From positions 620,001 to 684,000 of the forward strand of contig JAYWIR010000001.1 in NCBI GenBank assembly GCA_036172245.1: DNA of 64,000 nt. The letters are read 5' to 3'. Each line of letters begins with the position of its first letter. Position 1 is the first letter of the stretch. The position numbers were made by a program, and so were the translations under genes. The notes beneath the pieces were generated by a model, which worked only from the letters and a program-made list of their open reading frames with translations, was not told the DNA's origin and did no database searches. Source of the DNA: Raillietiella orientalis (taxonomy: Eukaryota). Shown here piece after piece: positions 371-55,200 of this stretch.

Positions 371-5966
<5,596 letters not shown>

Positions 5967-13218: not shown

Positions 13219-14164
13219 ATGCAGAAAGATATGGATAACCCTAGAATATTAGTTTTGAATGCGAAGAATCTGGACATTGTAAATGAACAGCTTAGTATCA
13301 TGGAGGAAAAGAAATTCGAAAAAGATAATTGTCTCTTCCGAACCGATTCAGAATTCCAAGTTTGTAAGTTTTGTTTTCTCATTTTCTGGCCAATACTGCA
13401 CTGTTGAAGAAATTATTCAGGTACATTTCCAGAGAAGTGCTTTGATAAAATATACGTAAACTCAACATTGCCGAATGATCTTCCCCATAGTGAAGCTTTG
13501 TTCACAGATCTATTTAGAGCACTTAAATTGGAGGGTCAGTTGTTGGTAGTTGCAGATTCCAATTCACTGTCAGCTCCCCAACTACGTACATATGGATTTG
13601 TTCAGATAAATAAAAAAGTGAAATCTGATGATGATGAAAATGCTAAATTCGAATATTTTATTTGTACTAAACCTCTTTATGAGGTAAGGTAATAAGGTCT
13701 CTGCCTTCTGTGTATGTTTTTCTTTTGGGTTACAGGTGGGTTCAAGTGTTTCACTATCATCTCACAAGACTAATGAAGTATGGTCCTTGATAGATGATGA
13801 TTTAATTGACCCAGATAGTTTATTAGATGATGACGACAAGAAAAAACCAGATCCAGAATCATTAAGAGGTAAACCAAGTTGAGAATTATTTGGCATGTCT
13901 GTTCTAGTATGTGGAACTACTGGAAAAAGAAAAGCATGTAAAAATTGTACTTGTGGATTGTATGAGGAATTGGCTGCTGAAGAGCAGCAGCAACAGCAAC
14001 AAGTCAGATCCAACTGTGGAAGCGTATGTATTAGCAGTTTTGTTTTCAGTGGTGTAACATCCAGTGTGTAGTGTTATTTAGGAGATGCTTTTCGTTGTGC
14101 AAGTTGTCCATATCTTGGACTCCCTCCATTCAGACCTGGTGAACAAGTGTTGCTGAAGCCTTGA
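13219..14164 (+). CDS. CIAPIN1: Anamorsin / Dre2 (cytosolic Fe-S cluster assembly), ~249 aa
   Basis: Exons 13219-13363, 13421-13683, 13736-13868, 13908-14023, 14072-14164. KPLYEVGSS, acidic linker [22 protein letters not shown]8CX2CXC ([15 protein letters not shown]), CX2CX7CX2C ([15 protein letters not shown]) and [12 protein letters not shown]. The start codon is less certain than the rest; a splice acceptor at 13192 suggests a 5' UTR intron. Confidence 0.95.
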
Positions 14165-15769: not shown

Positions 15770-18050
15770 AACCATTCGCGGGCCGGCAGGAGATCCAGGT
15801 GTTCATCCTGGTCAGCTTGACCACTCGCCGAAGTACCAGTCCGCAGTGGCACAGGTACCGACGTTTGCAGCGCACTAGTAAGGTACACAGTCCCGCGCCG
15901 CTGCTGGCTCGCCGAACCAGGTATCGTACTGGTTGGCACCAGCTGGTGCTCCACAACTTCGCCACTAGGGCTAAAGTCCTGAACTGGAGCGGCAGCTCCT
16001 GCCGCTCCAGCGTCAGGAGGCCGAGACCTCCGTTGCGACGCGGAGCGCACAAGTCCTTCAGGCGGACTCGTGGCTTCCCTCTGCCCCAAAGGACGATTCT
16101 CAGGAGGTCCATCGTCCGCTTCTTTACACCTCTCGATGGGGGACAAACAAAAAGCAAGTGGAAAAAGAGGGGAGCCACGAACGTGTTCCACACCACGGCC
16201 CGTTCCGGCAAGAAAAAATCGCCATCCAGGGATGGGCCGATCGCCTTCTCGGCCTTTTGGATGCAATTGGACCATGCTTCCGCTGGAGAGTATTCCACCA
16301 ACGGCACACTGAGGTACTTAAAGTACCGCACCATGTGGATCCCCAACCGGAGCCAGTCCTGCTAACCTGCCCACGACGAACCGACTGCAACCACGGACGA
16401 CTTCGCTCTTCAGTCCTGTCCCGCGGCGCAGCAGCTCGAAAAATTTTCGACCGCTGACGCTGGCGTGGACATGGAGAGCAGCAGAAGAAGATCGTCCGCA
16501 TACAACGCCACGGCCGGTGTACCTGGGCACGTCCCGCAAATCGGGGTGCCGACCGTGTTCCCTTTGATTATTCTACACCGCTGGAACTCGAACCAGGTGT
16601 TCGCGAAGAGCAGGTTGGTGTGCATGCTCCGCCTGGGAACGGCGTATGTCTGTTCCGGGCTGATGAAGCTTTCCGCCAACCACTGCAATCGCTCCGACCA
16701 TAATTTTGCCAGCAACTTGGCGTCCGCATTCAGAACGGTGATCGGACGCCACTTGCTGAGGTTCCGTAAGACCCCTCCCTTCGGAAGGAACGCATCCGTG
16801 CCGATCGGAAGGAGGCGGGAACGTCGCCTGTCTCCCGGATCATCAGCTTTAAGCGCTGCACCAGGGGGGTCAGCTCCGCCGCGAAGCCTTGAAAGAACTC
16901 CGCGGGCAGGCCGTCCTCCCCCGGTGCCTTCCGCCTTTTGAGTTTCCCGATGGGAGAATTCCCGGTGCTGAGGCACCCTGGTGTACAAGGAGGAATGATA
17001 ACTACGCACAAGGCTACTCACCCCTGCCGGGGCCGAGTGCTCCTGGTCCTCGTCGTCCAACAGGCTGGGCGACCCAGATTGCCAGGCTTGCCGCTCGGCC
17101 CCAGCTTTTAACTCTGCCAAACGACGAGCGTCGGGTGCTCGGGTGTAACGACGGGCCTGCAAATAGGCAAACTCGTTCTGAACACCCTTACCAAATCCTC
17201 TTGGGAGACGGTCCATGAGGAACTGTTGGCAGAACTCTCGGATCGAGACTTTCATATCGTTCCAGTCGTCGAGCGTCTGCAGGCTGAAACCTCGCAAGAA
17301 CGCGCGGTGTGCCGCTGCGTCTGGCTTGGTCAGCCAGTCCCCCGGTAAACGCCACGCCTGCGAAGGGGCCCCCTGTCGCGCGGGCGAATGACGAGTTCCA
17401 CACGGGAGTGGTCGGAAGCATCGGACGGCATCTTACCTCGCCTACCTACGCGAGAGCGCAGGTGCTCGTCGAGGAAGACGCGGTCCACGCTCCGTTCCAT
17501 CCCGGTGTCCCCGACTAACAAGTTGGACGCGTGCACCGCAGCGCATATCTCGTTAACCGGGGTGGCCTCTGTCCTCGCCGCACCTGACAGCAGGCGAATG
17601 TTGAAATCGCCGGCTATCAGGTGCGCCGTACGCGCGCCTGCCTCCGGCAGCCAGTCGCGCTGCAAGGCAAGGAAGAATGCCGTCCGTGCCACGCGCGCGT
17701 GACCGCCGCTCGGCGCGTACACGTTCGTGACGACGAGATCGATCTAGCCGGACCACCTGAAGGTGATTTGCCCGACCCGACCTGTCTCATCGAAACGAAC
17801 TTTCCGCACCGCGCGTTGTAAGGCAGGCTTCAGAAGAAAAGCGACCCCGCGCGTACGGCGGTGGCCGCATCGCCACATAAGCTGACCAGCTGCTATCCTC
17901 TCGATCTCCCGCGCATGTTCTGCGGAGATCTGATGGATCTCCTGCAGCAGCACGAGGTCGAAGGCTTGCAAAGTGGCAGCTATGTCTCGTCTCCTGCCGT
18001 CATCGCAAAGCCCGTTGACGTTCCAACTGGCGACGCGTATTTGACGGCAG
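15770..18050 (-). mobile_element. Tx1/L1-like non-LTR retrotransposon ORF2, APE endonuclease + RT part, degenerate and inverted relative to its own 3' end
   Basis: Minus-strand motifs in the canonical order: IRVASWNVNGL, LLQEIH, RGVAFLL, VYAP, LIAGDFN, VDRVF, SDH (APE); then KAPGEDGLPAEFF, WRPITVLNADAKLLAK, EQTYAVPRRS, YADD, KYLSVPL, LCAPRRNGGLGL (RT and thumb). In-frame stop at 17744-17746 and several frameshifts. Confidence 0.92.
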
Positions 18051-18054
18051 GTGG

Positions 18055-18724
18055 CAAGCGCCTGTTGCTGCTGCACTGGAGTCTCCCGTGCAACGTCCGC
18101 CGCCACCACTGGACGCGGGTGTGTGTGGATCCCAACTGTGTCAGGTACGGGGAGCGTGAATCCTACCCCCACCTGCTAGTGGACTGTGGCCTCTCTGGGA
18201 ATGCTTTGCTGCGGCCCTGGGAACCACGGAGGAAACTCGAGGGACGCCATCAAACCCCTCTTCGTTCGCGGCGTCCTTCGGCCAGCAGCCACCCTGGCAG
18301 CTTCATGCTGCCTACGCGGGCTAGTCGCTACTTGGAGCAAAGCAACAGGAGCATCCAGCGATAGGGACGCCATCCACTCCGCCATCCTTTCCATCAGGAT
18401 AGCAACACGATGGCCCCACCTGGAAAATAACACGCAGCATGATCTTGCCGACATCCTACAGAGGATGGACATCAGCAGACAGTGATCCCTCTCCGCACCC
18501 ATCCCACCCCCAAAGTGTATTTATTTTTATTTTTTGCTTCTTTTTTTTTTTCCTTTTTGTTTGTCCCCTTCCCTCTGCTGCCGTGGTAGACCGTGCCGGT
18601 CTGCGAACCGGTGGCCCGTCAGGTCTCCATGAAATTGTGCGTGGTTGGACCAGTGGTCGGACAGTTCGACCACAGTTCTTGTTATATGTTTATTTTTGAA
18701 TAAACGCCCCGGCGCGCCCGGGTG
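18055..18724 (+). mobile_element. 3' end of the Tx1/L1-like LINE: C-terminal CCHC (zf-RVT) region, stop codon and structured 3' UTR
   Basis: Plus-strand LHWSLPCNVRR..CVRYGERESYPHLLVDC, with the second Cys replaced by Tyr. After a frameshift the frame reads ..TRWPHLE..ISRQ* (TGA 18483-18485), followed by a T-rich tract, two hairpins, AATAAA (18699-18704) and a terminal hairpin (18708-18722). Confidence 0.8.
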
Positions 18725-26660: not shown

Positions 26661-29597
26661 AGCACCGACTGGAGGGCAGCCTGCGGGGGAGGAAGGGAGG
26701 GAGAGGAAGGCCTTCCTGCCCTTGCCCCCTGAGACCCTACTGCTGCCACAGGTGGCCTCGCGCCTCCACCGGGGACTCCTGAGGCGGAGAAGTCACTTCG
26801 CTCCGAGTCCTCTGGGAGTCTGGGGTCGAATGTCTTCACCCTACCCCCCAAACTGTGAGCAGCTCTGCTCCTCACCGGGTGGCCGAGCGCAGAGGTCAGA
26901 CGCGCTGGGGGGAGGGGGGAGGGAAGAAGTGGGGTCTACGCCTCATCCCCTTCCATCTGGTCCACACCTTCCCCCGAGGGGTGTGCGTCTTCCTGCCAGG
27001 ACGGAGAGGGGATGGCGGTGCAGTCCTACACTCCCTTCATCCCTGTCCCGGTCCGTAGGGGTCCGCCTTCAACCGCTGCCATTGCGCACGCGCGTGCCTT
27101 GGGGCTCCATGCTCTCCCCCTAGTGGGAGGAGTTGCCCATCGGAGAAAAGGGGGGGAAGATGCCCGAGACTCCCTGGCAACCTTGGCCAGGGCCGAGAGC
27201 GAAGGCCACGTTGGACACCCCGTAGAAAACAATCGCACCCTTGAGCCCTTCCTGGGAACCTTGCCCAGACCCACGTCCCATGTCGGGACCGCACGAGCCT
27301 CACTCCCTTCCCTCCTTCGCTCGAGGATTGGAGGCGTCATTGCCGGATGGGGTCCTGCAGAGAAGAGCCACAGGATGCGAGGGGCGCCATCCCCCGTGGC
27401 GCGCAGGGAAACCGGGCGGTTCTGGGCTCCACCACCTCCTAATGATGCGCGTCCACGAGAGGTGCACTTTCGGGAACGGGCGGTGGGGATTACTCTTGAC
27501 TAACTCCCTCCCCTCAGCTCTTTTTCCCCAGCCGAGAGAGATGCAACAGCTGCTAGGTCCGCCTCTCTCCGCGCTGCGACAGGGCACACTTAAGGAGAGG
27601 AGGAGGAGGAGGAAGGGAGGGGGAAGACGAGAAGGAGGTGAAGGGACGTGATTGAACCACGAAAAGCGGGTGAGTACGCCCGAAGCGCACTGACGGCCCG
27701 GATGGAGAAACCCTTGAGAGGTCACAATCCCGAGTGGACAGGACAGCAAGGACGGCGAAGTCATGCTGGCCGGTGGCTAGCGCCTTCCGTCAGCAAAACA
27801 GAGACGCGAGTGAGGTCTTCCCTTCCATGCCTCAGAGCGCCTCTGACGGACTTCCGGCCGTGTTGGGACTCGGACGGCGCCGTCCTCGCAGGATGCTGTA
27901 AGCGTTTTCGCTCGCCGACGCGACTCACGGGAATCCTGGAAGCTCCCATGGTGGGGACCCTTTCGGACGGAAAAGAAAAATCGGCCCACCAACATCACAC
28001 CCGCGAATCAGCAAGCTGAACCACGAGGCGCCTGCTAAGCGTGTGGTTCCACGGTCTCCGTGGCAGCAGATGGGTGTTTCTCACGCGCACTGGATTTTAG
28101 AAGCCCCTAGATCTCACCAGATGTCTTTCTCCTTCTTGCTAACAAAAAACAGCAATGTCTGCAAAAAGAAGAAAGAAATTCTGTGGAGGATGCTCCTGAT
28201 GTCCCACAGCTTTCAAGGTGTAGCAGACTCTAGTCTGGCTGTCATTGCCAGAGGAGTAGCCAGGTGCGAGTGGCACTTTTCGGCTTGCAAGCAGCCTCTC
28301 TCCAGGTCATGGTACCAGACTGAGGGCCGACCTGCTTCCCGTAACTCGCAGCTCGTGCCCTCGGGCGGTCTTCGTCCCAGCTCTCCTCGGTTTGTTCATT
28401 GGCTTAGCCTTCCCATTCTCCCTGTTCTCCCTCCCAAGGATAACCGATCGATCACCCCTTCTCAGACTGCGTCTCGGGAGTTTCCTTGGCGGACGTGGCA
28501 CTCCTCGCGATCAAGGCGGCTGCTCGCCGAGCCGATGTCCGTCTCTCTGCATTTCCAGTGGCTCAGCCCCGCTGCCGATCTCGTCCGGCAGCTGCTTCGC
28601 TACCCGTGTGCGTGGGAAGGGACCGAGAGGCTGCGTATCTCTATCGGGAGATCCTCTCCATCGTCAGAAGGAGCTTGGTTCGGGGCAGCTGATCTTTCGG
28701 AGAGCTGCGATGGATGGGGGAAGCAGCAGCCCCCTCCCCTTCAGATGAGAGCGCAGATAGATCGCATGATCTGATCCACGCCCTCGACGGGCGCCGCTGC
28801 TTCTGCCGAGGCAATCCGCAGAGAAGGGAAATGATTCCTTCTCGGAAGGAAGAGGAAGGGAAGAGAAGTAGGAGGAAGAGGAAGAGAGAAGGGGAAGAAG
28901 TAGATTCCGAAGAAAGGCGGGCAATGGAAGACCCAGGTGAAGGAAATCGAGTGCGTGCATGAGGAGACGGGGGAGGGGACAATGTCTCTCGCTGAAGGAA
29001 GAGCCAGGAAAAAAAAAACTCCAATTCATTCCATTGCGAGTCCTTGGAACCCGCGCCGTTCCATTCGCTCGAGTTGGAACCGCCAGAGGATGCGGACCAG
29101 AGAGAGCGCGTGATCCGAAGAACGGCGGCCTTCGCCGGAAGAGCATGCAGCCACGGCGGGGTGGATGGAAACTTCGGGCTGCGCGGAGAAGAACGCGGAA
29201 GAGACGTCCAGACGACCTGAAGAGATCGATGGGGGTGGCACCCCACTTGAGCAGAGGCGCCCAGGCGGCTTCCAGCTCGGAAGACGCTGAGTTTGAGCGG
29301 TTCCCGTTCAGGAGGTCCGATCACTTCCACTTGGACTCGCCCATCTTGAGGACAGCCTCCTGAAAACAGCTCCATAGGAACGCCGATGCTTCTCGCGGAG
29401 AAGTCATTGGAACGCCCCCGCAGCGAGCCGACTCGAAGGGGCTCTCGCGTGGCAGGGAGGAACAATTGGGGACGAAAGTATGCGAGACATCCCCTGTATT
29501 GGGTGCGCCCTCTCCGCGAAACACCAAGATACGCCACCAAGCAGTGCTTCCTGCTACTTGGAGAAGATAAATTTCAGGAATAGGAGGAGGAAGGGAA

Positions 29598-29957
29598 GAA
29601 AGGAAGGAGGAAGAAAGGAGTAAACGAGGAAGAAAAGGAGGAGGAAAGAGGAAGAGGAAGAAGGAAAGGAAAAAGTAGGAGGAAAGGAGAAAGGAAGATG
29701 CAGGAACAGCGTCCGGAATAAGGAGATGCCAATCCTTGAACAACTTGCATCCACTAGGCAACTTGAACTTGAAACTCGTAGCGGAGGAATTGTGGGGCGG
29801 CATGTACACCCGTCCACCTCTGCTGCCGTCAGAGGTGACCCCCTAGTGGTGCCCCAAGTGGGAGGTGGAATGAAGCCATCCATTCCATCCCCCGAGCTGT
29901 GAGCAGAGCTGCTCCTCACCGGGTGGCCGAGCGCAGGGGTCAGATGCACCTGGTCGT
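29598..29957. repeat. Direct repeat X, copy 1 (GA-rich tract plus structured unique segment)
   Basis: Near-identical to 33456-33832. A shorter diverged piece lies at ~26853-26905. Confidence 0.92.
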
Positions 29958-33173: not shown

Positions 33174-33455
33174 CTCTCGGTTTTCCGGGAGCGAAGACGC
33201 ACCCCGCAGGTCTCTGGGGCCAAGGGAAGGATTCAAGAGCGTCCTGTCCCCGGGATAGGAGGAGGAGGAGAAAGAGGTGGAGGAAGAGAAGAAAGTAAAG
33301 AGGAGGAGGAGGAGGAAGATAAAGAAGGAGAGATGAAACCGTCGGCCTGCCCTTGCCTTGAGACGCCTCCTGCTGGCTGGACCTTCTTGCGTCTGTTTGA
33401 GTCCAGGGTGATCTGGTCCTGAAGAGGAATGGGAGGAGAATGGCGCCGGAGGCAG

Positions 33456-33832
33456 GAAAGGAAGGAGGAAGAAAGGAGTAAATGAGGAAGAAAAGGAGGA
33501 GGAAAAAAAAGGAAGGAGGAAAGAGGAAGAGGAAGAAGGAAAGGAAAAAGTAGGAGGAAAGGAGAAAGGAAGATGCAGGAACAGCGTCCGGAATAAGGAG
33601 ATGCCAATCCTTGAACAACTTGCATCCACTAGGCAACTTGAACTTGAAACTCGTAGCGGAGGAATTGTGGGGCGGCATGTACACCCGTCCACCTCTGCTG
33701 CCGTCAGAGGTGACCCCCTAGTGGTGCCCCAAGTGGGAGGTGGAATGAAGCCATCCATTCCATCCCCCGAGCTGTGAGCAGAGCTGCTCCTCACCGGGTG
33801 GCCGAGCGCAGGGGTCAGATGCGCCTGGTCGT
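33456..33832. repeat. Direct repeat X, copy 2
   Basis: Aligns with 29598-29957; I see one substitution in the non-simple portion. Confidence 0.92.
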
Positions 33833-37981: not shown

Positions 37982-39842
37982 AAAATTAGCGCTCACGCAG
38001 GGGTGCTTAGTCCATCTCCCCAGCGCCTAACTGCCTCAAAATGGATGCCTGGAAAAAGGGCAGACTGTTCGGGCATGACGAGGAATCCGGCAGTTCTTCT
38101 CATTAGTTCTGGATGAAGAATCCCCTTCTGTTGAAGGGGTCTCCATTGGACGCAGCTCTCTCTGCACCACCAGCTTCTGCTGTCGACGTGACAAGGCTGG
38201 AGAAGGGGACCCCGTCCAAGAATCGGTTCTCTCTCTTCAACGCTCCCTTCTGCTTCCCTTATCCTGGAATACTCACTTCCTGCCGGAGGGAACTGGGACG
38301 AAAAAATAGGAAGGGATCTTTCGTGTCCCGCCCCGAGGTCCTCGGTTGGCTAATGATGCTGTCTCTCATCATCCCAAGTCCAAGGAGGAGGAAGAGCCAA
38401 GGAGAGCCAAGAGTCCAAGGAGCCTACGGTCACCTCCCCTCCCTGCTGCCGAAGGGATACATGGAGCTGCCGTTCCCGCCCCAAACGTGGAGTGCGCGAC
38501 TCACGAGCTCCTGGTGGACGTCCCTCGGATCTGTCCAGGAATCGGGAAGGGATGGACGGACGGACCTTGCGCTTCCCGGCTGCCTAGAGGAGTCTCAGCA
38601 GCGGAGGCGGGGGGAATAAAGTTCTGCAGACCCTGGTCAGCACAGAACAGTCTGGCACAAATCGCTCAAGGACAGGAAAGACATCCAAGGGCGTTCCCGT
38701 AGGGCTGCTGGAGACGCCCCGCATGGGTGAAGAGCGAAGGATTGTCGGTCGGCCGAGATCCTCCTGGCGCCTACGAGTGGCGAACCGCGTGGCTCCGGAA
38801 TAGAACAACAGTCCGCGCACGGGGGACTGGATTGCCGCTCTTTTGGAAGCTTCCCGCCTTTCTTCCCTCCTCGAGTCCCTCTGGGAAGCCTTTGCGAGGT
38901 CACAGGGAGTCCACTCAAACGGCGCCAAGAGCAGGCGCATCCTAGTTCGAGGAGTCCAAGAAGGGGGGACCTCGACCTCAAGCAGTATGGGGGCGGCGGA
39001 AGACCTGCAACCCACTTCTCTTAGGGGGCTGGCCCCCCAAAGCATCCACTCAGGTCACGCCTCAAGTCTCGCCCGAGGTCTCTCTCTCGTGAGATATGAC
39101 GGCCGCAGGCATCGCCTCAAGCGGTGCGCCAGCTCCAGGCGTCCTCCTTGCTCTTCCTGGCGGACGAGCCGGTCGTTCCTCAGAGGTGGCTCCCGGCTCC
39201 CCTGTTCCTGACAGAAGGAAAGGGGGTGAGGTAGGGAGGAAAGGCACCTCGCCCGCCGCCACCGCGGCACCTGCAGAGAACTCTGCGAGGGGCGGTCGGT
39301 GAGGGTTGGGCGTGGTGGCCACTCCCGTGCAGCCGAAGAAGGTTCCTTCACAGCATCGTCGTCTCCCTGGAGGTGGTCGCTCCCACCAATCGCTGGTGGA
39401 TCCTCTGCGGGCCCTGCGCTTCCTCTGTGACCCTTCCCCCACCCCCACCCCCACCTTTCCTCCGCAGGTCATCAGCGCGGTCCAACTCCCTCCCGCTCGG
39501 GAAAGGAGAGGATGCGAACGAAGGGGCCGTTCGCTACATCCCTTCCGGTCCCGGGGCCTGCATGCGTTCCGGAACGCCTCCGGAAGCTAGCCGACGTGCG
39601 GGCAGCTCGGGCGACGGGAGGCCCCTCCTGGCCCTGTGAAGGCATCGCAGGTTTCCCATCGGACGAGAGCCTCCTGATCCTTCCCGCCGTTCGCGGACGG
39701 CTTCCAGAATGCACAACGTGGATGCAGCCTCCCGGGCAGATCCGGACGAGCCCTCTCCCTTCCTCCATCCCTTTTTCGCCCTCCCGGAAGGAGAGACTTT
39801 CCAGGAAGAAGCCTCCCCACGTTCGGGAGGAAGCGGCAGGTG

Positions 39843-39848
39843 TTTATT
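39843..39848 (-). terminator. Polyadenylation signal of the KCTD gene
   Basis: TTTATT on + (AATAAA on -), ~150 nt past the stop codon. Confidence 0.65.
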
Positions 39849-39995
39849 AGTCCAGCCCGCCCACCCACCGCCAACCGGCTCGCCGTTTTTTTTTTTTTCT
39901 TTCCTTTTTACTCCCCCTCTTCGCCCTCCTCCTCCTCCTCCTCCTATGTCTCCACCGCCGCCTCCCCGGTCCAGGTCACTCCCGAAGGGGCGAGG

Positions 39996-42900
39996 TCACT
40001 TCCTGACGAAGAGGTACTCGTTGTAGTGGTTCCAGCGTGTCTCCTCGGACTCGACTCCCGGCTTGCACTCCCCGGTGAGCCCCGCAGTCCCGCTTCCACA
40101 GGCGCCCATGCAGGAGAAGCCTGCCCGCAGCAGCATGTCGAAGGCCTGCTCCAGGAAGACATGCTTCAGGAAGAAGCGGCTGGAGTACCTGGAAACCAGG
40201 GATAGATGCAGAGAAACCCCCCGGTCTTCTCCGGACACGCCGGAGTGAAGCCCCTGGAGCCAGCGAAGAGTGCCCCGGGTGCCGGCAGGAGTTGGGTCGG
40301 AGAGCCCGCTATCGACTCGGAGACGCCGCTCCCCCCGGGATGAACCCCCGGGAGAGGAGAGACGGCGACCGGGAGGAGGGGAGGCGGTTGCCAGGCTTTG
40401 CGTTTTGGTTGTTTTACGTTGTCGCACCGACAGACCGTCCCCCGGGATCGAGTGGGACCGACGCCACTGAGATGGGAGGAGGACAAGGAATGAAGGAGGC
40501 GAAAGACGGAGAAAGGGAGGGAGACGAGGAGGATAGGAGGTGGAGGATGAGAAAGAAACTGGAAGATACGAAGAGAAGGAATGGAGAAGGAAGGGAGGAG
40601 GAGGAGAAAGAGGAAGCGAAGGGGAGGAGGAAAAGGAGAAGAGGAAGAGGAAGGAGGTTTCTCTCTTCCAGGAAGGAGATGGAAGCCGGGAGCCTCTCGA
40701 AGCGCCGCCACCGCCCTTTGTTTTCTTCTTCTCCTTCGTTCCCCGCCCCCTTCCACCTCCCTTCCGAGTTGTTTCTCGTGGCAACGGGATGTCGCAGATC
40801 GGAGAAGGGGAGGAGCAAAAGGAAGTTACCGCGCGTTCTCGTGGTAACTTTCTCAGGTCTGCGAACCCGGGATCCGGGAACTCTGCCAGCTGGAGTTGTC
40901 CAAGGATGACCGGCGGAGCGGCGGCTTTGCCTGGGAAACCTCTCCTCGCCAGCGCAGCGGTCGGACACAACTCCTCTTCCCTTGCCTCACTGGAGCGAGA
41001 GCGATTTCCAGGACTCCGCCGTCGACCGGGGGTGCCCTGCGTAAGTCACGTGCCCCCCAAGCATCGCTGCTCTTGGACCATCGGCGTCAGCCCGGACTCT
41101 CCCCTTCCCCGAGAGAAAGGAGGCGAGGGGTCCTGAAGGAGTGAGGGGGAGGAACATTGCCGTCGCCTGAGCGCGCGAGGCTGAGCCCGACGTTCACCCG
41201 GTCTTCCCGCTCCCAGTCTCCCGCGCGCGCCCGCCGGCGAGCCGCAGGGACCGGAGGAAGAATTCCGCTCCGCTCTCCATCCTTTCCCCTTCTGTCTTCC
41301 TCCTCCTCCTCCTCCTCTTACTCCTCCTGAAAGCTGCGGGAAGATCTCGGGAGGAGCTCCTGTTTCTTCCAACAAGAGGGACGCGAGCTCGGGGGAGAAA
41401 AACGGGAAGGCACTCATCTAGGGGCCGCTCCCTTTCCGCCACGTCGTCACGCAGCATCCTTATCGGCAGCTTCCCTCCCACCTCACAGCGAGATTAGAAT
41501 TTCTCTATCGTCAGCCCCCGAGGCGCGATAACGGGAAGCGCCCGGATTCGCCCGCTCCGGCGGCAGGGAAGGAGGGAACGCCACGCCGGGAGCGACGCAG
41601 GAACCTGCGTCGCTCCGCACCCGTGGATAGCCCTCCACTGACTTCCTGCCCCCACCAGATGTCCACGTTCCCTTGCTCCCCTTCCCTTCCTCACCGACCC
41701 AGATGGGGGCCGCTTGCTGCCCGCACAGGACCATCTCTTTTCCTCTTCCCTCCCTCCTCCCCCTGTCCCTCTTGTTTTTTTTCATCCCCCTCCTCCCTTC
41801 CTCTTTCTCTTCCCTTCTTTGTCTTCCTCCTTTCCTTCCTCCTCCTCCACCTCCTCTTTCCTTCCTCCCTGTTTCTACTTCTCCCTTTTTCTTCTCCCCT
41901 TCCTCTTCTTCTCCTTCCTCTTCCTCCTCTTTCTCTTCTTCGTCTTCCTCCTTTCCTTCTATGTCCTCTTCCTCTTCTTTTTTTCATCCTCCTCCTCCCT
42001 TCTTTCCCCCACTTCTTCCTCTTCCTCCTCTTTTGCTTCCCTTTTTCGTCATTCTCCGTTCCTTCTCCTCGCCCACTCCCTCTCTTCCTCCCATTTTCCT
42101 CTTCATTTCCTCCCCCTCCTGAAAACGCAGTTTGAACTCTTGATGTACACCCGTGTATGGTACAAAGCGAGGAATGCCTGTGAATGATGACGTTCCCGCC
42201 GGCGCGGGGGCGTGGCTTTCGGCATACACAGCCACCCGCCGGACCGTTTGTTGCAGGGGGCGTTTGGGTGGGTCCCCCGCCTCTCCCAGGTGGGGAAAGC
42301 GCGGATCGCAAGCACCTGGAAGGCTCTTCCTTCCGCATGACCCACGGCGCCGGCTGGATCGGCGACTCAGCAAGAAAGAAGCTGTCCGTCCGGGAGATGG
42401 TGGCGGCGCCCCGCGGTGCTCGCGGGACCCCGGGGGTATGGCGCACCTTCCACGGCTCCCTCCCCCTTTGCAGGCTGCGGCGCTTCGGCTCGTTCAGGGA
42501 GGGCACATGCATGAGGGGTGCGCCCGAGGGAAGTCCAGCGGACCTCCCTCTGGCTGGATCCCCCCCCCCCGTACCTCCTCTCAAAGGGCGGGAGGTTCCG
42601 GGATTGCCGCCCTCCCTGCCCTCCGCGCCGTCGCCGAGCCAGGATGGAAGACGGGAGCTCCCTCCGGAGGTGGAGAGCGGGGGTCGTGGGGTGACCACGA
42701 GCGACCGGGGAAGGAGGTCAGTGGTCGTCGCCGGTGCCGGGCGGGGACATCGCCGGAAGGGGCGCGCGAGGGTCGCTGCTGTCCCCTAGCCGTGGAGGAT
42801 CGGACTGCGCGGCGCCTTCAGGAGCAGGTCAGGAACTCGGGAGAGCGGGTGACCCCGAGGGAGCGAGCCGGTCGCGGAGGCGGTCGGGCGCAGCTTTCCT

Positions 42901-50804: not shown

Positions 50805-51695
50805 GATCCGCTCCTGAAATTTCTTTCCCAGAAGGAACCCGCAAGGGAACCGCTCCTTGGTTTCCTCCTCCAAAGAGAACCCCGAAGGGAGCGGCGCGCT
50901 TCTGGCACTCTGGAGAGGCGACTCCCGAGGAAGGCATCAACCAGCTCCATGGTACGGCTCCACCCCCACTAACCGGAGGGAACCACGAAGGGCTCCTTGA
51001 TCGCTGGAAGGACCCATAGGGTCCTCACTTCTAATCCCGGAGGCCACTCAACGAGGGCATCCGCTTTCCACCAGTGCTGCGCCTTAGCAGCACTTTGCTG
51101 CCCACGGAGCGGGACCGTGGCTGCATGGAGCAGCAACGCCAGTGGAGGCCAGGACCATAGGACGCCATATATTCTGCCGTCCTTTTCACGAGGACAGAGT
51201 CAAGATGGCCCCATCTGGGAGTCTTGAAACAGGAAATGACCGGCATCTTTACAAGGATGCGGAGGACACCCTTCAGCACACAGTGATCCCCCCCCTCCAA
51301 TTTTTTTACTGTATGTTTTTTTGTTTTATATATTTTTTTCTTTTTTTGTTATCTCCTCTTCCCCTGTGCTGCTGAGACGAACCCTGCTGGCCTGCGTGCC
51401 AGATCCCGGCAGGTTTTTTTCGTATCCATCAGTAATGTGGCAGGATCAAACGTCCTGCCACAGACATCTATGTTTATTTTTTATAGATAAACACCCCGGC
51501 GTATCCGGGTGTTAACCAGCGCCGCACCTGAACCAGCAGCTCCCGCCTGAGGGGAGGACTCGAAACCCACGACACCCTTCCTCCTCCCCATTTGTCGGCG
51601 TCGATAGGCGGGATTTTCCCCGTGGGCGATTCGAACCCACGACCGCTCGGTGTCGCACCGGCGGAAGGCATAGCCGCACGGCCGCCAACACGCGG
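50805..51695 (-). mobile_element. tRNA-derived SINE (copy D), interrupted by a LINE 3' fragment
   Basis: 50805-51069 and 51515-51695 are reverse complements of adjacent parts of copy C. Head has TGGCGGCCGTGCGG and GGTTCGAATC. Confidence 0.8.
51085..51514 (+). mobile_element. 5'-truncated copy of the Tx1/L1-like LINE 3' end, with target-site duplication
   Basis: LAALCC..VAAWS..DAIYSAVL..SRWPHL..Q* is homologous to LAASCC..VATWS..DAIHSAIL..TRWPHL..Q* at 18290-18485, and the UTR layout is the same. Flanked by ACCAGTGCTGCGCCT (51070-51084) and ACCAGCGCCGCACCT (51515-51529). Confidence 0.85.
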
Positions 51696-51959: not shown

Positions 51960-52254
51960 GCCGCTGCCGCCACTGTCGTTCAGGAACACGGTGGCAATTC
52001 CCCAAGTCTTCCAAGGAGCCATCCTTTCCCGACCCTCCAAGGTGCTCGTATTTATTATTTTTCTATTCTTTTAATTTATTTTTCTTTTTTGCTCCCCTTC
52101 GCTTCCGGCGGCGGCCGAGGCGAACGACGCCGGTCTGCGTGCTGGCTGCCCGGCAGGTCCGGTGCAGAATTGGCTGTTGGTGGAGTCACGTGCACCACCA
52201 CAAAAGTTGCAGGTTCGTGAAGCTGTCAATAAACGCCCCGGTCGTCACCGAGTA
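51960..52254 (+). mobile_element. Third, more diverged 3' end of the same LINE family
   Basis: TRW remnant, T-rich tract, GCCGGTCTGCGTGCTGGC..CCCGGCAGGTC and AATAAACGCCCCGG. The left boundary is uncertain. Confidence 0.7.
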
Positions 52255-55200
52255 GCAGCCCCAAGGAGACCCCCCTTCGGAGCTTCGCACGCGCGCGCGC
52301 GCAGCATCGTTGCCTTCACACGTGCGGGAGCGGACGGGAAGCTGCGGCCCGCGACCTACTCCCGGAGGAACGTTCGTCGAAACGTTCGACGCACGCGACG
52401 CGCTCCCGCTTCGGGCGAACGGCCGCTACAGCTCGTCTGCCTCAGGAATTCACCCCCGCGACATTCCAGGTGCCCCTCACTTCCCCTTTTCCCCCTCGCC
52501 CCCCCCCCCCGCCCGCGTATTTGGAGTGTGGCAGCTCACGCAGCATTCTTCGAGAAAGTGGAGAGGGACGCAGGAGGCACGTTCGTTCCCCCGAAGGATT
52601 CCTCGGACGTCCGCTTTCAGCATACCCTAACGCCCCCTTCTAGGAAGCTGCCGGCAAAAGTGGGGGAGGAAATTTTTTTCAAAAAAAAACGCATTTTCGG
52701 TGAGAACCCTTCAAAAAAGGGACGGTCAGCAGTCACGACGAGACATTCCCTTTCGGCTGACTCCTGGAAATCCTGCAGGATCGGTGCACGCGACAACGAG
52801 AGCGAGGGCGGGCTGAAAACGAACGAACGAACACGGAGCGAGGCGAGTCGGGAGGAGGAAGCGGATGCAGGAAGACGGGGAGCCCATCTTACAGAAGAAC
52901 GCCACTCCTCCGAATGGATCCGCTAATGCGCGGACTGCGTCGTCTTGCGTGCTTCCAAGATGGCGGCGGCACGCGAGCACGCAACGGCGTTCATCCTGAA
53001 AAGCCACGCTTTGAAAAGGCCAAGTGCGCAGTGCACGGCGTCCGACACGTGTCCACTGCTTTTCCCCCGCCTGACCTCGGCGTACCTCCCGCTCCTCTGG
53101 TGCTCTCGGGTGCCGCTCGAACGTTCGCCCCCAGCACTCGCGAGAGAAGAGGAACCCTGAAACAAACATCGTGCGAGAGGAGGGGGAAAAAAATCTTTTT
53201 TTTTTTTTTTTTTTATTTATTTATTTATTCCGTCGTCCCTTGCTGCTGTCCTGCTGGGACAGCCTCCTTTCGCTTGCAGCGAGCGTGGTCGACCATCGCG
53301 GCCAAAGTTGCTCCGCGCCTCGCGTTTGCTGCCGCCTCCGACTCTTCCTCGGCCGGTTCTACGAGCTGGCTGGCTCGGTGCAGCATCAGCAACAGCCGGC
53401 GCCACGGTTTCCGAGAATTCGGATCTCTGGTGGTCTCCGAGCGCTTCGAATGGTTAGCTGATGGTGACCTTTCCCCCGCGTTCCACACGGGCTTCGCTGG
53501 CGTGTGCGACCTCTCTTGGGCGAAAAAAATTGGACGTCAGAACGCGAGACACTTTTTGGTGAAAACACTTTGATAGTTACTGCATGCGACACGCAGTCGA
53601 AAACACCTCGACACCACAACGTTACGCTCCTCGAGCATGTAGTACTGCAACGTAACGGTGGTAAAGAAGAGGAAGAAAGGAAAAAAAAGCCTGCATGATG
53701 CGGCTACAAGAAGCACAGAAAATCCTTACACTCTGCACCGCCGTTACTTCCTTTCGCTGCCGCTGAAGCCAATCGTGCGGGTGACCGCCGTCCATTAGCC
53801 GAATACGCAAGCCGAAGGGAATGTGCGGTGGAGTCCTCCCCGTCTCGTTCATCAGGCAAGCGCGAATCCGATGTGTCCCTTGGGCCGACGAAGAAGGCGT
53901 AACGAAGAGGGATTAGCACTTCGGAAGAACCCATCAAAACCTGCGAGTACTCTGACTCTCTGGACCTTCTTCAAAGACTCGCGCCAAAGTTTTTTTCTTT
54001 TCTTTTCTTTTCGACGAAGAGGAGGCGAGCATTCGTTGAAGGAACGAATCAACCCTTTTCATTTCCTGTAAACGAGCTGCTTCCTTTTTCCTTCGCAAAT
54101 CCCTTGTTGGCACAGCGCACGAGGTTCGGACCGGAAGAAAATTTTGCATAATGAGTTACCCGAGCTGCAACTTGATGGCAAAGAAATGGATGGGAGAGAG
54201 ATAAACAGAAAAGTAATCAAGGAGAGTAGACGAGGGAGGGAAAAAAGGAAAAAAAAAAAAAAAACAGAAAGAAGGGGGGGGGGGGGACGAAGCTTTCCGT
54301 ATCATCAGGCGAGCAACAAAATTTTGCAGCAGGTGATGGCACCGAGTTGGTTAGACAGACGCGTCTGCGTTGTTTTTGAGTCAATGTCCTTCGGCAGCAC
54401 GTTTCCTGGAGACCACGGCGTTAGACAAACAGAACCGACTCCCGAAGACGAAGCACACGCACGCCCCCTGTCCTGAACGATCCTGTGCTCGTGCAAGAGG
54501 GGACCACCGACTTGCAGAGCAGCAGACGTCCAGCGGAGCTGCAGCGGAACGGCTCCAAATCGACTGAAGATCGGTTTGACCACAATTTGCGGGGCAAACC
54601 CATCGTCACGTCCACCGGAGTGGGATTCGCAGGATGCGTGAACCTCGCATCGCTCTCGGGTCCCCACGCACGCCCCCCGGAGCCAGCCGTGACACAGGCG
54701 GGAACAAGTCAACTCTTCCGAAATCGAACCGAAGCGCCCGGTCGGGAGTTGGGGCGCTTGGCGCTTTTGCAAAGTGCAGCAGCTCAAAACCCCGTGGACC
54801 GCCGAGCGAAGCTTCCAGAAGAACTGCGACTCGCCTACACGCCCGGATGCCCCACTCCCCGCGTCCCACCACAGCATAGGTTCCGCTTCATCCGCGCTGA
54901 AAGGAAGAACCTTCGGACTCGCAGCGAAGCCATCCAATGAGCGAAAGGATGCTGGATGTCATAGCCTGGGTGAAAAGCATCCGTTTGGGCGAGGCGGAAG
55001 CGGGAAATTCCGCTGCGTAGGCCAACGAAGCGCCATGCGAGGCGGCGCGAATGGAACGCGGCTAAAAGAGTACCTATTCTACTTGGGCCTCTGTGCTATT
55101 CGTTCCGAAGTTGGGAAAGAACACAGAAAGGCAAAATGCGGATGGATCGGTGGAGCGACCTGTGCAGACACATACGCAACCTTTGACCCGGCCGATTACC

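Follow-up and report, generated by a model that had tools for sequence, protein, structure and literature searches.

A multi-hairpin module with paired stems at the tail-less 3' ends of a probably L1-like retrotransposon family

In the 64-kb window (the whole stretch of eukaryotic DNA that was analysed), one retrotransposon-like family is represented by three 3' ends that have diverged from each other and share a tail-less boundary, a conclusion that comparison of the copies supports. These ends carry a compact module of about 140 nt with clear invariant unpaired bases, and our data also support that its stems have been kept paired beyond neutral expectation. Selection for pairing of the sense-strand RNA is likely. 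As to what the pairing is for, recognition and priming by the element's own reverse transcriptase is the role that we favour, with a probability of roughly 55%.

Under this reading, the copies would be 5'-truncated insertions from diverged lineages of one family, and their 3' UTR would be a folded module read on the sense strand. From 5' to 3' it would comprise a pyrimidine-rich leader, an outer helix P1 together with hairpin A, its CUGCG loop and a CCCG(G/U)CAGG bulge, then hairpin B, an AU hairpin with AUAAAC, and hairpin C. In 'stringent' target-primed reverse transcription of this kind, the ORF2 protein is predicted to bind its own RNA at the stems and at those unpaired bases that are invariant, and would place the RNA 3' end on the nicked target. 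Synthesis of cDNA would presumably start at the foot of hairpin C without annealing of poly(A), and a start at that point would leave copies that end at one fixed position without an A-run.

Three copies with one 3' boundary

The three copies, referred to as c18, c51 and c52, all lie on the + strand and are 62–67% identical to each other in pairwise comparison. The first, c18, is a 5'-truncated retrotransposon copy at about 18062–18724. Copy c51, equally 5'-truncated, is homologous from 51056 to about 51511 and possibly starts at 50949, while c52, truncated near the stop codon, occupies about 52019–52252 (homology from about 52027) and has its end between 52252 and 52260. A decayed C-terminal coding part opens c18 (18062–18485), with a Cys/His motif at 18122–18187 and a frameshift near 18250–18300; the decayed coding part of c51 is drawn at 50949–51286, its start being taken solely from a candidate target-site duplication. 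These two copies have in common the reading frame, conserved residues and a TGA stop (18483–85 in c18, 51284–86 in c51). Both are dead, since each contains a frameshift or a stop.

Behind the stop codon one order of parts is kept in all three copies: a C-rich stretch, a tract of 46–57 nt with 72–76% T, a paired region round an invariant CTGCG, a CCCG(G/T)CAGGT block, hairpin B, the motif ATAAAC(R)CCCCGG and the GC hairpin C. The C-rich stretch and T-rich tract of c18 fill 18486–18565 (T tract 18516–18565, 76% T). The 3' UTR of c51 is at 51287–51513 with its T tract at 51298–51354, and the tract of c52 is at 52049–52094. A preliminary description of this DNA had claimed three diverged 3' UTRs with a common order of parts, and we find every sequence element that it named in its place. 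Blocks that are invariant across the copies are CTGCG, CCCGKCAGGT and ATAAACRCCCCGG, and hairpin B terminates in an invariant CCACA. Both the CTGCG loop and the CCCG(G/T)CAGG block, earlier proposed as partners in a pseudoknot, are thus unchanged in the three copies. A pattern made of the joined blocks has exactly three sites in the window and none in 100 shuffles.

While the 5' starts of the copies differ, their 3' boundary is common. Downstream flanks are unrelated (of 300 shuffles, 115 to 300 reach or exceed the score of the real flanks), so that the three copies share one 3' boundary without an A-run. Homology past hairpin C between c18 and c52 was considered and rejected as being at noise level. 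Mapping of the 3' junctions agrees with the earlier claim that poly(A) is absent: the bases after the element end are AGACTC in c18, TTAACC in c51 and AGCAGC in c52, and no A-run follows any of the three. The foot of hairpin C is 2–4 nt short of the element end, and a short tandem repeat is present at none of the three extreme 3' ends. No target-site duplication was found for c18. Candidates for c51 (10 of 12 bases, at 50937 and 51512) and for c52 (an 8-mer at 52011 and 52261) are near chance and not significant. Two other interpretations of the pyrimidine tract were rejected. It is not the A-tail of a minus-strand element, as the homology between c18 and c51 continues beyond it in both directions and the truncation pattern fits the + strand; nor does an ENE-like triple helix suit the U tract, since no flanking complementary stems are visible by eye and there is no Rfam match.

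Neither BLASTN nor nhmmer, the searches suggested in the preliminary description, gave a fourth copy in the 64-kb window; an extra nhmmer match at 39802–39910 (E 0.007) was rejected because it is no more than a pyrimidine tract. A strict pattern of all blocks had no matches in metagenome and genome contigs. A looser one hit two metagenome loci and one Cystobacter locus, which we attribute to chance, the loci being bacterial coding DNA, rich in GC, in which both the T tract and ATAAAC are missing, and it had no matches in viral contigs. No partner SINE sharing the tail was seen in the 64-kb window. That the motif had not been recognised is in line with a search of Rfam 15, where no match in the window reached the gathering score; at E up to 10 there were unrelated matches only, which differed between copies. 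The motif is new relative to Rfam, and for L1-clade LINEs, folded 3' ends that show compensatory changes have been published before.

A common boundary at a fixed distance from a hexamer could also come from processing of the message. If the module served mainly for formation and stability of the mRNA 3' end, which is compatible with recognition by the reverse transcriptase, the U-rich tract would be an upstream enhancer and AAUAAA the signal, with cleavage at the foot of hairpin C, about 20 nt further downstream, and the hairpins would modulate how accessible the signal is or shield the end. The homology does stop 20–21 nt past the hexamer in all three copies, and the available part of PMC5381506 presents the L1 3' UTRs of frog, lizard and fish as having AATAAA behind a pyrimidine tract. 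In addition, an AU hairpin D (GTTTAT/ATAAAC), at 18688–18705 in c18, pairs with ATAAAC and contains most of the AATAAA hexamer of that copy (18699–18704), its pair probability being 0.81 in c18 and a weaker 0.12 in c51. However, copies of polyadenylated RNA made by the relaxed route should have A-runs and none of the three does. AATAAA is found in c52 (52228–33), but c51 has GATAAA (51486–91), and the invariant part is ATAAAC(R)CCCCGG and not the hexamer. Moreover, the CUGCG loop and hairpin B, 40–100 nt upstream, are left unexplained, and we consider 3'-end formation unlikely as the main role.

Pairing of the stems and folding energy

The sample for covariation is three sequences, the helices were chosen after these had been seen, and the alignment of c18 with c51 is anchored on the arms of hairpin B. 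Hairpins A (5 bp), B (9 bp) and C (5 bp) together have 38 stem bases, of which 9 are not the same in these two copies. Not a single pair is broken by these differences, which include four double-sided changes and one conversion of G-U to G-C.

Hairpin A is surrounded by the outer helix P1, and the two form a bulged stem-loop (18588–18626 in c18) of 10 bp, its loop being 6 nt long and its bulge 5 bp away from the loop. In c18, P1 (AGACC/GGTCT) joins 18588–92 with 18622–26, and hairpin A joins 18596–18600 with 18607–11 under the loop CTGCGA (18601–06), with the conserved block CCCGTCAGGT at 18615–24. The corresponding positions in c51 are 51379–83 with 51412–16 for P1, 51387–91 with 51398–402 for hairpin A and 51405–14 for the block. 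In c52 they are 52122–26 with 52156–60 for P1 (3 of 5 pairs), 52130–34 with 52141–45 for hairpin A (two G-U pairs) and 52149–58 for the block. The covariation claimed earlier for hairpin A under the loop CTGCG(A/T) is borne out, as 15 of 15 cells pair and two pairs are double-sided, with a U-G intermediate in c52. A further double-sided pair is added by P1, whose changes are A-U, G-U, G-C and, separately, G-C, A-U.

Hairpin B of c18 (18653–18673) has 9 bp with one G-U, a CAG loop and a mean pair probability of 0.95; that of c51 (51436–45 with 51453–62) has 10 bp and that of c52 (52178–83 with 52195–200) has 6 bp. It had been described as changing in sequence while remaining paired. Pairing does hold in all three copies, with two double-sided changes, one of them a C-G to A-U double transversion, but the register of c52 is shifted and there it provides no positional covariation. 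Hairpin C, a GC hairpin, is as described in c18 (18708–12 with 18718–22, within 18708–18724, where the homology ends) and in c51 (51495–99 with 51505–09, extendable to 51490–51513). For c52, in contrast, the 4-bp stem proposed earlier is better drawn at 52237–52252 (52237–42 with 52247–52, 5 of 6 pairs). Hairpin C is conserved in sequence and is therefore neutral on structure, neither for it nor against it. Hairpin D is present in c18 and c51 without covariation.

Random placement of the same number of changes left hairpin A unbroken in 336 of 20000 trials when unweighted and in 814 of 20000 when transitions were weighted 3:1. For hairpin B the counts were 70 and 246 of 20000, and for A, B and C together 1 and 20 of 60000. 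When the 3' partners were slid, pairing fell from 93% to 20–53% and the double-sided pairs from four to none or one. A shuffle control of pairing (45 of 500) has no power with three rows.

Tests that do not depend on the chosen helices, namely column shuffling and neutral decay, lead in the same direction. The RNAalifold consensus of c18 and c51 has an energy of –45.25 kcal/mol versus –18.5 ± 3.9 for column shuffles (z –6.8, 0 of 300), and an unedited three-way MAFFT alignment gives z –4.4 against column shuffles (0 of 300). Simulated neutral decay of c18 or c51, at 30–40% change per site, yields mean energies of –15 to –25 and attains –45.25 in none of 250 runs under each of four settings. 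Among single sequences, the + strand of c18 folds with z –2.31 (3 of 200 shuffles as good) and that of c51 with z –5.99 (0 of 200), while c52 alone is not significantly structured (z –0.40, 68 of 200 shuffles fold as well). On the minus strand the z values of c18, c51 and c52 are weaker each time (–1.92, –3.54 and +0.74), and the consensus energy gives z –5.4 for c18 with c51 and –2.4 for the three-way alignment (6 of 300). It should be noted that the G-U pairs would read as C-A mismatches on the opposite strand. Stems of at least 9 bp are rare within the GC-rich island where the copies lie, with 18 loci in 45,230 nt, and two of these are formed by hairpin B, in c18 and in c51.

Could the module nevertheless have no present function? 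Its palindromes would then be inherited, and the apparent compensation would stem from post-hoc choice of stems, transition and CpG bias and repeated CCGG words. There is material for such a view: the copies are three, both arms of hairpin A contain CCGG, and one of its double-sided pairs consists of two CpG transitions and could arise without selection. Pairs hit by a C-to-T or A-to-G change always survive as wobble pairs, hairpin A is disfavoured by the energy model, and c52 is decayed, breaking 2 of 5 pairs of P1 and 1 of 6 of hairpin C. On the other side, the double transversion in hairpin B has no wobble or CpG route, pairs stay unbroken in only 20 of 60000 trials even with transitions at 3:1, and neutrality is also rejected by the helix-independent tests. 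In addition, CpG is not depleted in the island (observed/expected 0.8–1.0). Absence of function thus appears improbable, less credible than a main role in 3'-end formation.

The energy model raises a separate question for hairpin A. Its 5' arm can pair with the invariant block in a competing helix, YGCYGG/CCGKCA (18594–99 with 18616–21 in c18), which both RNAalifold and the energy model prefer, and in ensembles of the full UTR the pair probability of hairpin A is 0.01, 0.00 and 0.00 for c18, c51 and c52. The competing helix has two mismatches and no double-sided pair of its own, so covariation favours hairpin A while thermodynamics favours its competitor. Both may form. A bolder proposal, which we regard as very doubtful, is that the module acts as an RNA switch with two states, in an L1-like element that has no tail and belongs to an animal-type genome; the GCYGG arm would alternate between partners and the fold would decide the fate of the RNA. 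In one state the arm would be paired with the 3' arm of hairpin A and in the other with the CCCG(G/U)CAGG block, which is invariant, and the choice of fold would either offer the RNA end to the reverse transcriptase or leave the RNA to be handled as an ordinary polyadenylated message. Should this be true, L1-type elements outside plants would also have kept stringent structure-guided priming, regulated by alternative folding.

Identity of the element

The sole endonuclease and reverse transcriptase body near the copies is an L1-like LINE body with APE endonuclease at 15772–18040. It is encoded on the minus strand and faces c18 head to head. The preliminary description had c18 ending a Tx1/L1-like LINE; with the neighbouring body on the opposite strand, c18 is not simply its 3' end, and upstream of the copies their own strand carries no reverse transcriptase. 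The Tx1/L1 label itself is supported in part only: the adjacent body is L1-like, but the coding part of the tail has no Pfam match or homologue, and its Cys/His motif, as read in a decayed copy, is spaced differently from that given for L1.

The only relative of the minus-strand body on record, P0002, matches human L1 ORF2p with E 7.2e-40 over 395 aa and R2 proteins with 7e-17. The body appears to be L1-like as far as solved structures tell, the other clades being without a solved structure. Further relatives of P0002 are not on record, the tail shows no likeness to P0002, and PDB searches with the window's own reverse transcriptase and endonuclease fragments were uninformative.

The body is 3'-truncated exactly at a boundary between GC-rich and AT-rich DNA, and its 5' end and that of c18 adjoin each other. 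Read along 15772–18724, the order is flank, inverted upstream part and direct 3' part, with about 160 residue-equivalents missing between the two parts; a search for target-site duplications was negative here. L1 insertions that are 5'-inverted, of the twin-priming type, have this order of parts. Whether the body and c18 make up one 5'-inverted insertion is, judging from this arrangement, a matter of near even odds.

The coding part of the tail has about 140 aa and bears, in a decayed copy, the Cys/His motif C-X4-C-X10-H-X4-C. For the C-terminal motif of L1, the available part of PMC5381506 gives CX3CX7HX4C or CX2CX8HX4C, from which the spacing in the decayed tail differs. Pfam yields no match to the tail at E up to 10, and a word-indexed search with its last 101 aa gave no homologue. 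The sole phmmer match among 1.84 billion representatives, a bacterial repeat protein, was judged spurious. A language-model lead points to the reverse-transcriptase zinc-binding cluster zf-RVT with a score of 0.93.

In our view the copies' family is probably a non-LTR retrotransposon of L1-like type, presumably a member of the L1 clade. That the copies are not LINE tails and belong instead to another repeat class, or to a retrocopied gene family with regulatory hairpins in its 3' UTR, would suit a coding part without Pfam match or homologue, the lack of a same-strand upstream reverse transcriptase and the lack of clear target-site duplications, but it is the least credible of the alternatives in view of variable 5' truncation with a fixed 3' end, which is a LINE signature, the Cys/His motif with its zf-RVT lead, an L1-like body placed as in a 5'-inverted insertion, and a UTR layout that matches non-mammalian L1 (PMC5381506, in the part available).

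Known structured 3' ends and the surrounding DNA

Recognition of a folded 3' end by the reverse transcriptase, the role that we favour for the module, has precedents in several groups of elements. The preliminary description had set L1, dependent on poly(A), against other LINEs that read structure. This contrast is too sharp, as the literature already has L1-clade LINEs of the stringent type, whose 3' hairpins are conserved and show compensatory mutations (PMC3472496, of which a part was available to us). In the monocot LINE1-1_ZM group and in Chlamydomonas L1-1_CR, the stems vary in a compensatory manner while loop and flank bases are fixed, and these elements are inferred there to need their own 3' end for reverse transcription (Ohshima 2012, PMC3472496); in the same source, 5 of 15 green-algal L1 families are without a 3' repeat. 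Compared by description, the present module is like them in its conserved 3' hairpins, compensated stems and fixed unpaired bases. The published elements have one hairpin in the last 45–50 nt, mostly end in poly(A) and share their tail with SINE partners, according to the same part of PMC3472496. Here, in contrast, three to five helices extend over about 140 nt, and neither poly(A) nor a SINE partner is seen.

Elements of other clades offer a second comparison. The folded 3' UTR of R2 is bound by the element's protein for target-primed reverse transcription, and R2 copies lack poly(A). The family described here is like R2 in its folded 3' UTR and in copies without a poly(A) tail. R2 is, on the other hand, site-specific and has a restriction-like endonuclease, and the L1-like body in the window is far nearer to L1 ORF2p (E 7e-40 versus 7e-17). 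The L2 tails of zebrafish and eel end in short tandem repeats, unlike the three copies, which have no such terminal repeats. The mechanism that we propose is that of these tails, although L2 is a different clade (PMC4176376, in part). Most LINEs are 'stringent', their ORF2 binding a 3' stem-loop, and binding by the cognate ORF2 protein is reported for zebrafish ZfL2-1 and ZfL2-2 and eel UnaL2, with the stem recognised generally and the loop specifically (Hayashi 2014, PMC4176376, the part at hand).

As regards vertebrate L1, the 3' UTRs of frog, lizard and zebrafish elements have C-rich and T-rich tracts after the stop and a hexamer near the end, and frog, lizard and fish L1s end in AATAAA followed by a poly(A) tail (PMC5381506, in part). 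The copies share the pyrimidine tracts and the hexamer near the end, but have no tail and do have conserved stems, whereas the available part of PMC5381506 describes no conserved stem-loops. A consensus for LINE 3' stem-loops, with a loop of 5–7 nt, a stem of 8–10 bp and a bulge 4–6 bp from the loop, is given in the part of PMC5135761 available to us. P1 with hairpin A fits this human L1/Alu consensus in shape, which is the one property compared, and the human stem-loop is itself a computational proposal for a poly(A)-dependent element (PMC5135761, in part).

Confirmed on many copies, the module would mark a further L1-like element, apparently outside plants and algae, that reads a folded 3' end and not poly(A). 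It would then be relevant to a proposal in the literature, by which L1 was 'stringent' in its ancestral form and poly(A) dependence evolved afterwards, on more than one occasion. It would not be a new principle.

All three copies lie in a GC-rich island at 15800–61000 (45 kb, 57–68% GC) that has no long ORFs. It is flanked by AT-rich gene DNA with 35–43% GC and a CpG observed/expected ratio of 0.41–0.73. The island looks like a repeat graveyard, within a genome that would have lost CpG from its gene bodies but not from here. Genes in the flanking DNA include exons of an SMG1-like PI3K-related kinase at 1305–5686 (+), assigned by eye from a catalytic-loop motif, and an anamorsin-like gene at 13408–14071 (+), for which the match to Pfam Anamorsin_N is weak (E 7e-4).

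There are no tRNA genes in the window. Two tRNA T-arm-like words, for example GATTCGAACCCACGACC, lie at 51565–51650 between c51 and c52, where ARAGORN reports no tRNA, and a minus-strand SINE of tRNA origin may have left them behind. About 40 nt past the end of c52 is a (CG)n run (52290–52302). An identical 26-nt hairpin is found at 29864–29889 and at 33739–33764, about 3.9 kb apart, which points to another repeat family in the island. Degenerate purine-rich arrays of GGAAGA type occur among 29582–29697, 33262–33572 and 40586–40655, with a pyrimidine-rich array complementary to this type at 41785–42032. Finally, two perfect GC-rich hairpins of 12 bp are located at 15984–16010, inside the minus-strand LINE body, and at 41589–41616.
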